NCBI GenBank assembly: GCA_040755875.1
Contig: JBFLZJ010000023.1
Span: 4,977 to 68,976 of the forward strand
DNA from: Pseudomonadota bacterium
GTDB lineage: Bacteria; Pseudomonadota; Gammaproteobacteria; Burkholderiales; Burkholderiaceae_D
Reading direction: 5' to 3'
Length of the DNA: 64,000 bases
Shown: positions 46,125 to 61,229 of the stretch, piece by piece
Layout of the letters: each line of letters starts with the position of its first letter
How positions within the stretch are numbered: the stretch's first letter is position 1
Notes under the pieces: model-generated
The model's database searches: none
What the model saw: only the letters and a program-made list of their open reading frames with translations
What the model was told of the DNA's origin: nothing
Made by a program: the position numbers and the translations under genes

Positions 46125-46481
46125 TTACTGCTCCTTGCCCCCCTGGCGGTTGCCCGCCGACTTGGCGGCGTTGGCCGCGCGGTTTGCCGATTGCCGGCTT
46201 TCGCCGCCCTTGCGACCGATGTCGGCCATGTGTGCACGGTTGCGGCTCACCGCCTCACCGCCTTTCTGCCCGGCGCGGCGCGCTTCTTCGGAATCGAATT
46301 CGTGCGCCGTGCCTTTCTGGTGGGCGGCCTGGCCGCCCTTGCTGGCGATCTCGCGCTGCTGGTTCTGGTCCATCGCCGCGAAACCGCGTTTGGCGGGACC
46401 GCTGCCGCTGCCGCTGCCGCTTTTCTGCGCGCTGCCGCCGGAGCTGCCCGCGCTCTTGCCGCTCTCCTTACTCGTCGCCAT
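46125..46481 (-). CDS. KGG-repeat general stress protein (YciG/GsiB-like)
   Basis: RGFAAMDQNQQREIASKGG, ARRAGQKGG and HMADIGRKGG repeats. Confidence 0.92.
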   Translation of the reverse strand: MATSKESGKSAGSSGGSAQKSGSGSGSGPAKRGFAAMDQNQQREIASKGGQAAHQKGTAHEFDSEEARRAGQKGGEAVSRNRAHMADIGRKGGESRQSANRAANAAKSAGNRQGGKEQ

Positions 46482-46651
46482 GTCGCTCTCCTGGTTGCCC
46501 TGCACATGAATGGAATTGAACGCAGCATTGCCGCGCTCGTGCGGTTAGAGACACAGCCGGTTTGATAGTTCCGTCAGCTTGCTGCGTCATGCAGGGCGCC
46601 ACGGCACGCCGCGCCGACCGCACTCCGGCCGGCGCGGCGTGTCATCGATCA

Positions 46652-59429: not shown

Positions 59430-59496
59430 ATCGGTTTTCCTGTCGTTGCGGGGGCGGCTTGCGCCGCCCCGGGTGTTACGTCGAATCCGCCCTGTG

Positions 59497-59652
59497 TCAG
59501 CTGTTCAGGCAGATGTTGTACTGCTCCCAGCAGTCGTACAGGAAGGGATCGCAGACCTGGTAGAACTTCCAGCAGCGGTCAGGATCGCCGGCGTGTGCCG
59601 CCGACATGCCGAGACCCAGGGCGAACAGGAACAGTGCAAGTTTGCGCTTCAT
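59497..59652 (-). CDS. Secreted 4-Cys peptide A (51 aa; 30-aa mature)
   Basis: GGAGA RBS; MKRKLALFLFALGLGMSAAHA|GDPDRCWKFYQVCDPFLYDCWEQYNICLNS*. Confidence 0.8.
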   Translation of the reverse strand: MKRKLALFLFALGLGMSAAHAGDPDRCWKFYQVCDPFLYDCWEQYNICLNS

Positions 59653-59723
59653 TTCATCTCTCCGGGGACAGACGTGATGACAGAATGATACCGCGCCGTC
59701 TGGTCGCGCGGCATCATTGTTGC

Positions 59724-59759
59724 AAAAAAAGAAGAGGGCGCGGCAGGGCCGGGCCGCGC
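59724..59759 (-). terminator. Terminator between the two peptide genes
   Basis: Minus strand gcgcggc-ccggccct-gccgcgc followed by cctcttcttttttt. Confidence 0.6.
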
Positions 59760-59767
59760 GGCGCCTG

Positions 59768-59923
59768 TCAGCGTTCCAGGCAGGCGAGCAGCTGGGCGTA
59801 GCAGATGTCCGGATCGTCGCCGCAGAGTTCGTAGATCTTGTTGCAATGACGTGGGTCGGCGGCCTGGGCTGCCGAGATGCCGAGGCCGAGGGCGAACAGG
59901 AACAGTGCAAATTTGCGCTTCAT
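59768..59923 (-). CDS. Secreted 4-Cys peptide B (51 aa; 30-aa mature)
   Basis: Same RBS context; MKRKFALFLFALGLGISAAQA|ADPRHCNKIYELCGDDPDICYAQLLACLER*. Confidence 0.8.
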   Translation of the reverse strand: MKRKFALFLFALGLGISAAQAADPRHCNKIYELCGDDPDICYAQLLACLER

Positions 59924-60045
59924 TTCATCTCTCCGGTTGTGCAGACGTGGGGACGCAAGGACGCCGCGCCGTCTGCTCACGCGGCGTCGCCTTGAAAGGA
60001 AACGGAGAGCGCGCGACCGAAGACCCGCACGCCAGGCGCCGGGAC

Positions 60046-60504
60046 CTAGTTCGACTGCGCCACCGTCTGGGGCACGATGCCCGCGTGCTTCAGGGCCTCG
60101 TCGTAGACGGGCGGCATGAAGCCGTCGATGCGGCGGTTGCCGATCAGGATCAGGGGGACGCCCTTGCCATCGAGCTTGCCGAAGGCTTCCCTGGCGGCGG
60201 GCGACTTCTGGACGTCGTAGTCGGCGAAAGCGATGCCGCGCTCGCGCAGGTAGTCGCGCGCCTTGGCGCAGTAGGGGCAGGTCGACGTGCCGTACATCAC
60301 GACCTTGGTGCTGGGGTTGGGGAAGTAGGCGGCGTAATTACCTTCGGTGTAGTCGCCCTTGAGCCACTGCGGCACGCGCGGGGCCAGGGTGCCGATGGCG
60401 ATGCCGGCGGCGATGATGAGGAGGTAAGAAAAGACGGTTTTCAGGTGTTTCAATGCATTCTCCCGTGGTGACTGGGTCACTTGTTTTGTTGGCGTTGTCG
60501 CCAC
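60046..60504 (-). CDS. Membrane-anchored glutaredoxin/NrdH-like protein
   Basis: N-terminal TM (VFSYLLIIAAGIAIG), CPYC active site and GVPLILIG; exact start uncertain. Confidence 0.88.
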   Translation of the reverse strand: MATTPTKQVTQSPRENALKHLKTVFSYLLIIAAGIAIGTLAPRVPQWLKGDYTEGNYAAYFPNPSTKVVMYGTSTCPYCAKARDYLRERGIAFADYDVQKSPAAREAFGKLDGKGVPLILIGNRRIDGFMPPVYDEALKHAGIVPQTVAQSN

Positions 60505-60596
60505 GGGAATAGTACCGCCTGAATTGTTAAGCGGAAGCAGTCAACAATGATAGGTTTCTGATAGGTTTTTAGTGCTAGGGAATAATTTCTGGGCGT

Positions 60597-61229
60597 TCAG
60601 GCAGCGTCCTGGGCGCGCCAGCGGCGGTAGATGCGCAGGGCGACATGGGCGTCGTCGGCCGCGTACAGGATCTGCTTCTCGCTCAGGCGCGGCAGCGCCC
60701 AGTTGGTGGTGGTGATGCGCTTGGATTTCTGCATCTCCTTGCCGAAGAAGCGCGCCACCGCGGTCTTGGCGCCCAGCGGATTGCGTTCGCCGCGGCGGCG
60801 CAGGGCGGTGGAGAGGTCGAGCACGTTGCGCGGCTCGATGCCGAGCTTGGCGCGCACGCGGCGCAGGTCGTCGCCCAGGCCGAATCCCACCTTCAGGATG
60901 GTTTCCGACTCGAGCACGGCGCGCAGGACGTCGAGGAGCGGCGCGACGGACGGCGCGTTGGCCGCGACCTCCCGTTGCGCACCGATCTGGAACAGCCAGG
61001 CGCCTTCGTCGGTGGCAAGCTGCACCAGGTGCGGCCCGGTCGATTCCTCGCCCTTGGCGAAGGTCGGCTTGGACTCGGTGTCGAAGCCGACGGCATCCGA
61101 TGCGGCGAGCGCCGCCAGGGCCGCGGCGGCATCGGCCGCGGTCTTTACCAGCACGACGTCGGCCAGCCTGATCCCGTCATAGGGCGGCAGGCTGGCGTCA
61201 AGCGTCGCGCTCATCGGCGGCGCAATCAA
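60597..61229 (-). CDS. 3'-5' exonuclease (DnaQ-like, RNase D/WRN type)
   Basis: GFDTES (ExoI), DLRR and QILYAADDA (ExoIII); start may be 61214. Confidence 0.9.
   Translation of the reverse strand: MIAPPMSATLDASLPPYDGIRLADVVLVKTAADAAAALAALAASDAVGFDTESKPTFAKGEESTGPHLVQLATDEGAWLFQIGAQREVAANAPSVAPLLDVLRAVLESETILKVGFGLGDDLRRVRAKLGIEPRNVLDLSTALRRRGERNPLGAKTAVARFFGKEMQKSKRITTTNWALPRLSEKQILYAADDAHVALRIYRRWRAQDAA

Follow-up and report, generated by a model that had tools for sequence, protein, structure and literature searches.

Two short open reading frames (ORFs), herein called gene A and gene B, lie in tandem within a 64,000-nucleotide stretch of DNA from a Pseudomonadota bacterium (GenBank assembly GCA_040755875.1, contig JBFLZJ010000023.1; the whole stretch is called the window). 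An initial annotation, made from the sequence alone, proposed that they encode secreted peptides of a new disulfide-rich family. Are these ORFs genuine genes, and if so, what might their products do and what might fold them? We conclude that A and B are real, constrained genes that are probably well transcribed. The strongest result and the best functional clue is that peptide genes of this kind are associated with a gene for a glutaredoxin-like protein (Grx). On balance, we lean toward the explanation that the products are Sec-exported hairpin peptides that are folded by a dedicated Grx and used in competition or signaling.

Two constrained genes and their glutaredoxin-like neighbor

Genes A and B (Table 1) are located on the minus strand, which the initial annotation did not mention. 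Otherwise, translation and direct counting confirmed its description of two 51-aa ORFs. The same ribosome-binding context (CCGGAGAGATGAAATG) lies directly 5′ of both, their leaders are identical at 18 of 21 residues and their cores at 10 of 30, and Cys residues occupy mature positions 6, 13, 20, and 27 in each. Both leaders have the anatomy of a Sec signal, with an MKRK start, a hydrophobic core, and an AxA motif for cleavage that reads A-H-A in gene A (after 21 residues) and A-Q-A in gene B. The 30-residue core of gene A is acidic and aromatic-rich, with the pattern C-x6-C-x6-C-x6-C; the core of gene B is likewise 30 residues long with four Cys. The unit that has been duplicated is approximately 272 nt long and takes in 47 nt of non-coding DNA on the upstream side.

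Several lines of evidence place this pattern far beyond chance. Third-codon-position G+C (GC3) is 0.83 for gene A and 0.79 for gene B, versus second-position values (GC2) of 0.40 and 0.42, in a host genome of 68% G+C. Orthologs occur in 3 of the 36 other genomes of the genus (both genes in G018 and G034, gene B only in G015) with all Cys residues in register, and proteins P0003-P0020 are further B-type homologs. In 20 homologs from other assemblies, residues C27, K29, Y31, C34, C41, C48, and L49 are invariant, and indels among the four-Cys homologs are confined to the Cys2-Cys3 interval, which varies from 5 to 9 residues. Synonymous changes are in excess among orthologs, as dN/dS values for the core (Nei-Gojobori) are 0.12-0.24 for A and 0.19-0.37 for B, and the B genes of G018 and G034 differ by three synonymous and no nonsynonymous changes (dN/dS of 0).

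These values do not bear out the hypervariable core that was initially proposed as the hallmark of a diversifying peptide. The ratio of nonsynonymous to synonymous change approaches 1 only when paralogs A and B are compared with each other (core 0.75-1.33, leader 0.08-0.23), such that diversification of the core relative to the leader is restricted to that comparison. Each paralog type is 70-90% identical across species. Because the paralog types are conserved between species and only A versus B has diverged, the history of the pair is one of an old duplication, then divergence, and then constraint, rather than continuing hypervariation.

The initial annotation regarded the lack of a transcript as grounds for doubt. 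Contigs from public runs labeled as RNA match the boundaries of both genes. Gene A is represented in runs X26 and X27 by contigs that extend from 59480/59487 to 59657/59665 (depths of 26 and 4.9), and gene B is represented in an RNA-labeled run by a contig covering 59783-59956 (depth of 12.7). These contigs derive from a strain that is 95-99% identical, and the flanking genes have no assembled contigs. Indeed, A and B yield the sole full-length contigs of X26 and X27 within the 1.3 kb between 59300 and 60600. Within the limits of assembled contigs, these findings support the existence of abundant, separate, short transcripts from the two genes. Across the last 20 kb of the window, three genes alone have full-length contigs in X26, namely A, B, and the gene for a general stress protein of the KGG-repeat (YciG-like) type (126 aa; 46125-46505, minus strand). 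This co-occurrence offers a hint of stationary-phase or stress-related expression of the peptides.

The gene for the glutaredoxin-like protein is located 122 nt upstream of gene B on the same strand. The initial annotation was correct that no enzyme that modifies peptides that are ribosomally made and then altered post-translationally (RiPPs) is adjacent, but it overlooked this neighboring gene for a thiol-disulfide oxidoreductase. The protein is not a classical glutaredoxin, which would be soluble, cytoplasmic, and recognized by an equivalog model. Its scores fall below the cutoff of every NCBIfam glutaredoxin equivalog (best 65.5 against 88.55), and it carries an N-terminal membrane helix. 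This single hydrophobic helix (residues 23-41) has an N-terminal flank with a charge of +3 and a neutral C-terminal flank, from which an N-in/C-out orientation is predicted. Such a topology would place the CPYC domain in the periplasm, which is the compartment that the peptides enter. A CxxC motif is invariant among 13 homologs of the partner (as CPYC, CPFC, CGYC, CSYC, CQYC, or CPHC), and the cis-Pro residue is also kept.

The distribution of the two gene types is strikingly coincident. In a sample of 201 genomes from the taxonomic family, the Grx-like gene is found in 12, the peptides in 11, and both in 10. In all 10 genomes that have both, a single Grx-like gene either lies no more than approximately 150 nt from a peptide gene or has peptide genes on both sides. 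When loci were collected by tblastn, 12 of 13 distinct array loci (excluding the three six-Cys clusters of the bacterium's own genome) had the Grx-like gene either within the array or alongside it. The partner is 44-57% identical to array-embedded homologs from the same family. Within the genus, Grx homologs at E<1e-30 are present in 8 of 41 genomes. Five of these are orthologous loci of the module, and the close Grx orthologs are confined to genomes that have a window-type locus. Of the three more distant homologs (43-50% identity), one lies at a contig end, and each of the other two has a gene for another secreted Cys-rich peptide beside it.

The association extends to more remote relatives. 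Across the order Burkholderiales, the sole two full-length Grx homologs outside the taxonomic family (G353 and G366, from two other families) are each followed by a canonical six-Cys peptide. The most distant membrane-bound homologs (31-35% identical, with 35% for G232; G232 and G154) each precede the gene of a Sec peptide of 50 aa that bears a twin C-X3-C motif. This points to hairpin peptides with different Cys ladders as clients of the Grx family. No other recurrent neighbor of the arrays was found among transporters, immunity proteins, modifying enzymes, and receptors; the neighbors are unrelated housekeeping genes. Furthermore, in the closest relative (G001), the Grx gene has become a pseudogene through a frameshift and the loss of approximately 170 nt that include CPYC, and both peptide genes have been deleted. 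This joint decay supports functional coupling of the partner and the peptides.

Two side observations concern these remote loci. The twin C-X3-C peptides (L046, 2383-2535, in G232 and L064, 1927-2079, in G154) carry the motif as …DCYKRCMKELDDKEKCERICKDET and represent an alpha-hairpinin-like pattern in a bacterium. In another genome, G035, two copies of the membrane-bound Grx gene lie 4.6 kb apart (L043, 4437-4835 and 9033-9431), with a six-Cys peptide gene after the first.

A four-cysteine branch of a six-cysteine peptide family

Pfam and NCBIfam gave no credible match to A, B, or four six-Cys paralogs, and in this respect the view that the peptides constitute a new family remains sound. However, they are not a free-standing family and are instead four-Cys derivatives of an uncharacterized six-Cys family. 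An exhaustive hmmsearch with the four-Cys profile over 1.84 billion representative proteins recovered only six representatives of the four-Cys family at E<1e-10. At E values from 5e-6 to 7e-4, the search reached proteins of 57-71 aa that share the leader of the four-Cys peptides and have six Cys residues arranged as C-x3-C-x6-C-loop-C-x6-C-x3-C. A large protein collection contains 19 four-Cys clusters (50-57 aa or short N-terminal variants), all from Massilia/Telluria where the source is named. All are annotated as 'hypothetical protein', which contradicts the expectation that standard annotation would miss both genes, as pipelines do call the homologs.

In a joint alignment, the Cys residues of A and B correspond to the inner four (C2-C5) of the six-Cys scaffold, and a helix-1 Tyr is held in common. 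The full scaffold is not present in A and B because the C1 position is occupied by D or N and a stop codon stands at the C6 position. The leader type M-[KN]-[KR]-K-x-A-x-F-L-F-A-x-G-L-G is shared by A and B with the six-Cys members; within it, F10 never varies, and conservation at K4 and G13 is 90% or higher. The stop at the C6 position is TGA in six of seven genes, and since TGC or TGT can become TGA in one step, this fits a derivation of A and B by truncation. Thus, A and B are a derived, Massilia/Telluria-restricted four-Cys branch of the six-Cys family rather than canonical members. This branch would have arisen from a six-Cys hairpin by the loss of the outer Cys pair, with translation ending at the former Cys6.

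We also considered whether the TGA codon at the Cys6 position might encode selenocysteine, and rejected this possibility. The orthologous gene of G015 stops with TAA, reading through the stop yields no conserved frame (gene A of G018 and that of G034 are separated there by an indel), and Cys1 is absent. A tRNA-SeC is encoded in the bacterium's own genome (aragorn coordinates 117734-117829), so selenocysteine is used somewhere in this organism, although not in the peptide genes.

The six-Cys superfamily comprises more than 50 clusters, and every one that is named by a source is a 'hypothetical protein'. Named sources are Janthinobacterium, Massilia/Telluria, Rugamonas, Pseudoduganella, and unclassified Oxalobacteraceae. 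The 11 peptide-bearing genomes of the 201-genome sample belong to six genera and usually carry arrays of two to six genes. Homologs that preserve the frame and the Cys pattern, which the initial annotation had recommended seeking, are therefore available in both four-Cys and six-Cys forms. The bacterium's own genome encodes at least eight six-Cys paralogs in three tandem clusters (contigs C2, C7, and C10).

Some of these clusters have features that merit separate mention. The C2 cluster (G000:C2:431421-431804) is directly downstream of dxs, as are arrays in two other genera (g31 and g85; loci L038, L041, and L042), and this position looks like the ancestral, syntenic home of the peptide family. 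The dxs-linked arrays of g31 and g85 hold a Grx gene inside, and the only Grx gene in the bacterium's own genome is that of the window locus. Beside the C7 peptide pair is a gene for a secreted protein of 123 aa (G000:C7:22068-22439, minus strand) with the pattern C-x3-C-x6-C ... C-x6-C-x3-C and a loop of approximately 70 residues between the halves. We regard this protein as a long-loop member of the scaffold. Finally, P0030, a secreted repeat protein of 677 aa, has nine matches to the four-Cys profile (E 3e-5) via ...C-DKLYEVC... units. It may be either an unrelated Cys-ladder repeat or a distant relative.

Predicted hairpin fold and candidate functions

The proposal that the peptides form a two-disulfide helical hairpin is matched by structure prediction, and it stands as a prediction only. 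With the family alignment as input, AlphaFold models the mature gene B peptide as two helices (residues 3-12 and 17-29) with a pLDDT of 84.8, and models the full precursor as a signal helix followed by the same two helices with a pLDDT of 69. The confinement of indels to the Cys2-Cys3 loop agrees with this arrangement. Cys residues with i/i+7 spacing lie on one helix face, and antiparallel packing sets C1 opposite C4 and C2 opposite C3. We infer from this geometry that the disulfides would be nested, as C1-C4 and C2-C3.

Comparisons with known structures were less informative. A Foldseek search of the PDB with both AlphaFold models returned no matches, the query being too short. The four-Cys profile alone recovered from the PDB no hairpin peptide and neither of the glycocins compared below. 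Its sole match is the cleaved Sec signal of a periplasmic binding protein, which, together with the leader anatomy, upholds the annotation of the products as Sec-type secreted peptides. The superfamily profile has its best PDB match in nemertean neurotoxin B-IV (1VIB), a helical hairpin cross-linked by disulfides, with which it aligns in all six Cys columns at E 0.007; the vicilin-buried hairpinin 7UV1 comes second. Because these scores rest mostly on Cys residues, convergence is likely.

Disulfide-stapled helical hairpins recur as small, very stable bioactive peptides, including glycocins, plant alpha-hairpinins, and scorpion and nemertean toxins. The similarity to neurotoxin B-IV lies in the shared Cys columns (C-x3-C-x6-C ... 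C-x6-C-x3-C) and is limited to the six-Cys relatives; the toxin is an animal protein that is basic and has eight Cys residues. Alpha-hairpinins have a helix-loop-helix with two or three disulfides, carry a signal peptide, and are defined by C-X3-C-X(4-20)-C-X3-C or by six Cys with X3 spacings (PMC11591084). Aside from the 7UV1 match, the twin C-X3-C peptides of G232 and G154 resemble them. However, the defining C-X3-C spacing is found neither in A and B (C-X6-C-X6-C-X6-C) nor in the six-Cys relatives (C-X3-C-X6-C...C-X6-C-X3-C). Alpha-hairpinins are plant proteins that are often excised from larger precursors, and homology to them is undetectable.

A precedent for the export of such a peptide is the Escherichia coli heat-stable enterotoxin STII (STb), which enters the periplasm by its Sec signal, acquires two disulfides there, and crosses the outer membrane via MacAB-TolC (PMC5985334). 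STII has no sequence relation to A and B, and it is served by housekeeping DsbA rather than by a dedicated, adjacent enzyme. To our knowledge, its route is the only documented one of its kind for Gram-negative peptides. CHCH proteins (twin C-X9-C) and small Tim proteins (twin C-X3-C) also form a helix-turn-helix with Cys pairs on facing sides, and they are oxidized by Mia40, an oxidoreductase dedicated to their compartment. They differ from A and B in being proteins of the eukaryotic mitochondrial intermembrane space, in their spacing, and in lacking a signal peptide, and there is no homology.

These observations can be assembled into a proposed pathway. Genes A and B would each be transcribed as a short unit and translated into 51-aa precursors for Sec export, after which signal peptidase I would cleave following AHA or AQA, as judged from the signal anatomy. 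The 30-residue products are predicted to adopt a helix-turn-helix with two nested disulfides, a connectivity modeled on that of the glycocins. The membrane-anchored Grx-like protein would be a dedicated oxidase or isomerase for A, B, and the six-Cys paralogs. Such an enzyme-peptide relationship is probable given how strictly the genes adjoin, how their distributions coincide, and how the module has decayed in relatives. The resulting stable extracytoplasmic peptides may then serve in competition or signaling, perhaps leaving the cell by a TolC-type pump as STII does, which is the weakest step of the proposal. We are reasonably confident of the structural and module parts of this pathway. The exported bioactive role is plausible, but our confidence in it falls somewhat short of even. 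An interaction molecule is weakly favored, as the genes form tandem arrays, their cores diverge while the Cys ladder stays fixed, their distribution is patchy, and they are gained and lost rapidly.

A number of facts weigh against this proposal. The 'RNA' label of the sequencing runs is the inference of a tool, and the data are assembled contigs rather than reads. The pairing of peptide and Grx genes is strong but not obligate because some arrays lack an adjacent Grx gene (the C2, C7, and C10 clusters of the bacterium's own genome and one G187 array) and some Grx genes lack peptides. Specifically, G076 has a Grx gene without a peptide gene, and at its window-type locus G063 has kept Grx along with the upstream hairpin described below after loss of the peptide coding sequence. 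The arrays without Grx fit a scheme in which a single enzyme acts in trans on all paralogs. In addition, no obvious partner that would accept electrons from the one-helix Grx, or donate them to it, is encoded close by. The net charge of the peptides (-3 to -6) is unlike that of typical cationic antimicrobial peptides, and this acidity, coupled with the absence of a linked exporter, immunity protein, or receptor, argues against a classical bacteriocin and keeps a periplasmic redox or metal role alive. More generally, the cleavage site, disulfide connectivity, enzyme-substrate relationship, and localization all derive from sequence and models.

In that periplasmic role, the peptides would not leave the periplasm. 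Together with Grx, they would use the Cys residues of a helical hairpin much as CHCH proteins such as Cox17 do, serving as a thiol/disulfide relay, as a sink for oxidants, or as a buffer for soft metals (Cu, Cd, Hg), and Grx would hold them in the reduced state or recycle them. Sec export in a Gram-negative cell does deliver proteins to the periplasm, no exporter is linked, the peptides are acidic and Cys-rich, and the partner is of the glutaredoxin type rather than the DsbA type. Moreover, the KGG stress protein provides the only other full-length X26 contig, with its hint of stress-phase expression. Still, multi-copy arrays with strongly divergent cores and a patchy, fast-turnover distribution would be unusual for a housekeeping function, and Cys residues at i/i+7 on two packed helices have the geometry of structural disulfides. 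No His/Met-rich motifs, metal-resistance genes, or DsbD/CcdA-type electron source are found nearby, and the adjacency to cytochrome c genes is incidental, as discussed below. We therefore consider a redox or metal role unlikely, though it deserves to be taken seriously. Far less credible is the idea that A and B are non-functional duplicates or chance ORFs in G+C-rich DNA and that the true feature of the locus is a hairpin element or an antisense gene. Long antisense ORFs do overlap the A/B region, and a hairpin precedes each ORF and persists in G063 and G001 after loss of the coding sequence. However, purifying selection acts in the minus-strand frame, the coding GC3 signature is present there and absent from the overlapping antisense ORFs, the Cys framework is invariant in about 20 four-Cys and more than 50 six-Cys homologs, and the RNA contigs coincide with the gene boundaries. 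The invariant residues, dN/dS, and GC3 effectively refute this idea.

A third possibility is that A and B encode glycocin-like or other RiPP bacteriocins whose precursors are further modified (e.g., glycosylated) and exported by machinery encoded elsewhere. Glycocins consist of two alpha-helices held by nested disulfides (PMC6405829), and their precursor genes adjoin genes for thiol-disulfide oxidoreductases (BdbAB, GccCD, EnfB) (PMC12457901). The double C-X6-C spacing is shared with sublancin (2MIJ; C7/C14/C29/C36) and glycocin F (2KUY; C5/C12/C21/C28), and sublancin 168, glycocin F, pallidocin, and thermoglycocin parallel A and B in having a precursor gene beside an oxidoreductase gene and in the helix-loop-helix, which is predicted for A and B. 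However, hhalign probabilities of 13.7% (glycocin F) and 0.4% (sublancin) indicate no homology. The A and B leaders are of the classical Sec type rather than the double-glycine type, and neither a SunS/GccA-type glycosyltransferase nor a C39-peptidase ABC transporter is found among the window neighbors or beside the arrays examined. Nor do the loops of A and B (DPFLYD and GDDPDI) offer a Ser, Thr, or Cys residue for glycosylation. Glycocins are products of Firmicutes and rely on a thioredoxin-like/DsbB-like pair, whereas A and B are acidic peptides from a Gram-negative organism that are accompanied by a single-pass glutaredoxin-fold protein. Although they resemble the scaffold of a glycocin without its sugar, A and B do not belong to the glycocins, and we judge this possibility to be highly improbable.

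If the preferred explanation of Grx-folded, exported hairpin peptides is correct, then the known elements of the system are a disulfide-stapled hairpin peptide and a dedicated oxidoreductase, and the new elements are the peptide family, the Sec route, and the glutaredoxin-type partner. We found no description of these peptides or of the module in the literature searched (Cys-rich peptides of Oxalobacteraceae with glutaredoxin; bacterial hairpinins), nor of a ribosomal, Sec-dependent hairpin family with its own folding enzyme in Proteobacteria. It is tempting to speculate, although we do so only tentatively, that this is a self-contained Gram-negative system, not described before, for producing ribosomal, unmodified, disulfide-stapled hairpin effectors by means of a Sec leader and a dedicated periplasmic foldase. 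In such a system, the Cys ladder would stay fixed while the core diversified across tandem arrays, and the four-Cys peptides would be a minimal, two-rung version. The peptides would then be Proteobacterial bacteriocins, toxins, or pheromones of a new class, with a scaffold that is physically like that of glycocins, plant hairpinins, and some animal toxins but independently evolved. Likewise, the partner would be the first characterized membrane-anchored periplasmic oxidoreductase of the glutaredoxin fold with a dedicated peptide substrate. Such a dedicated partner bears on the evolution of specialized disulfide formation alongside the general Dsb pathway. With its two or three genes, the module is small and can be easily expressed and tested. 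If active, the peptides might offer scaffolds for stable peptide engineering and represent new microbial interaction molecules of soil- and plant-associated Oxalobacteraceae.

Genomic setting and non-coding elements

The neighbors of the peptide genes in the window encode glutaredoxin, cytochromes c, an exonuclease, and ProQ. A backbone composed of proQ, the exonuclease gene, a slot, and a dihaem cytochrome c gene is conserved in the genus, including in genomes that do not carry the module. The slot (window positions 59430-60600; loci L051-L058), which lies between the RNase D-like exonuclease gene and the dihaem cytochrome c gene, is a variable insertion hot spot. Depending on the species, it holds the module, a decayed module, a methyltransferase gene, a lipoprotein cytochrome c gene, a gene for a repeat protein of at least 478 aa, or nothing. 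We considered a functional link between the peptides and the downstream cytochrome c genes and rejected it. The proximity to cytochrome genes is incidental, since genomes that lack the module keep the backbone and unrelated genes fill the slot in other species.

Table 1. Coordinates of the peptide genes, the partner gene, and nearby non-coding elements (positions within the window)
Feature	Position	Strand	Details
Gene A, 51-aa precursor	59497..59652	minus	MKRKLALFLFALGLGMSAAHA|GDPDRCWKFYQVCDPFLYDCWEQYNICLNS (leader|core), stop TGA
Gene B, paralogous 51-aa precursor	59768..59923	minus	MKRKFALFLFALGLGISAAQA|ADPRHCNKIYELCGDDPDICYAQLLACLER (leader|core)
Partner gene, 152-aa glutaredoxin-fold protein	60046..60504	minus	Pfam Glutaredoxin E 1e-14
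Intrinsic-terminator-like hairpin and T-run	59738..59759	minus	G+C-rich, just 3′ of gene B
Upstream element of gene A	59669..59715	minus	9-bp stem GATGCCGCG...CGCGGTATC, 11-nt loop with CAGACGG
Second copy of the element, before gene B	59942..59988	minus	GACGCCGCG...CGCGGCGTC, compensatory T-A to C-G change

The terminator that was initially noted between the genes is indeed present as a hairpin with a T-run. This terminator-like structure splits A and B into individual transcription units, with which the separate, short RNA contigs agree. A scan of the locus for sigma-70 promoters found none.

Each gene is also preceded by an upstream hairpin, with CACGTCTG and the Shine-Dalgarno sequence located 3′ of the stem. 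The best Rfam hit for this element is a meaningless microRNA match (E 0.97), which gives it no Rfam identity. Genome-wide, the hairpin is unique to A and B, and we rejected it as the motif of a broader regulon because it occurs before these two genes only. It precedes all seven four-Cys genes in four species. In an alignment of these seven sequences, 95% of cells are paired and there are two compensatory pairs; 77 of 500 shuffles do as well, such that the signal is not significant. Changes that are compatible with G·U pairing also occur and fit a sense-strand RNA structure, perhaps one that acts as a 5′-UTR stabilizer or as an operator.

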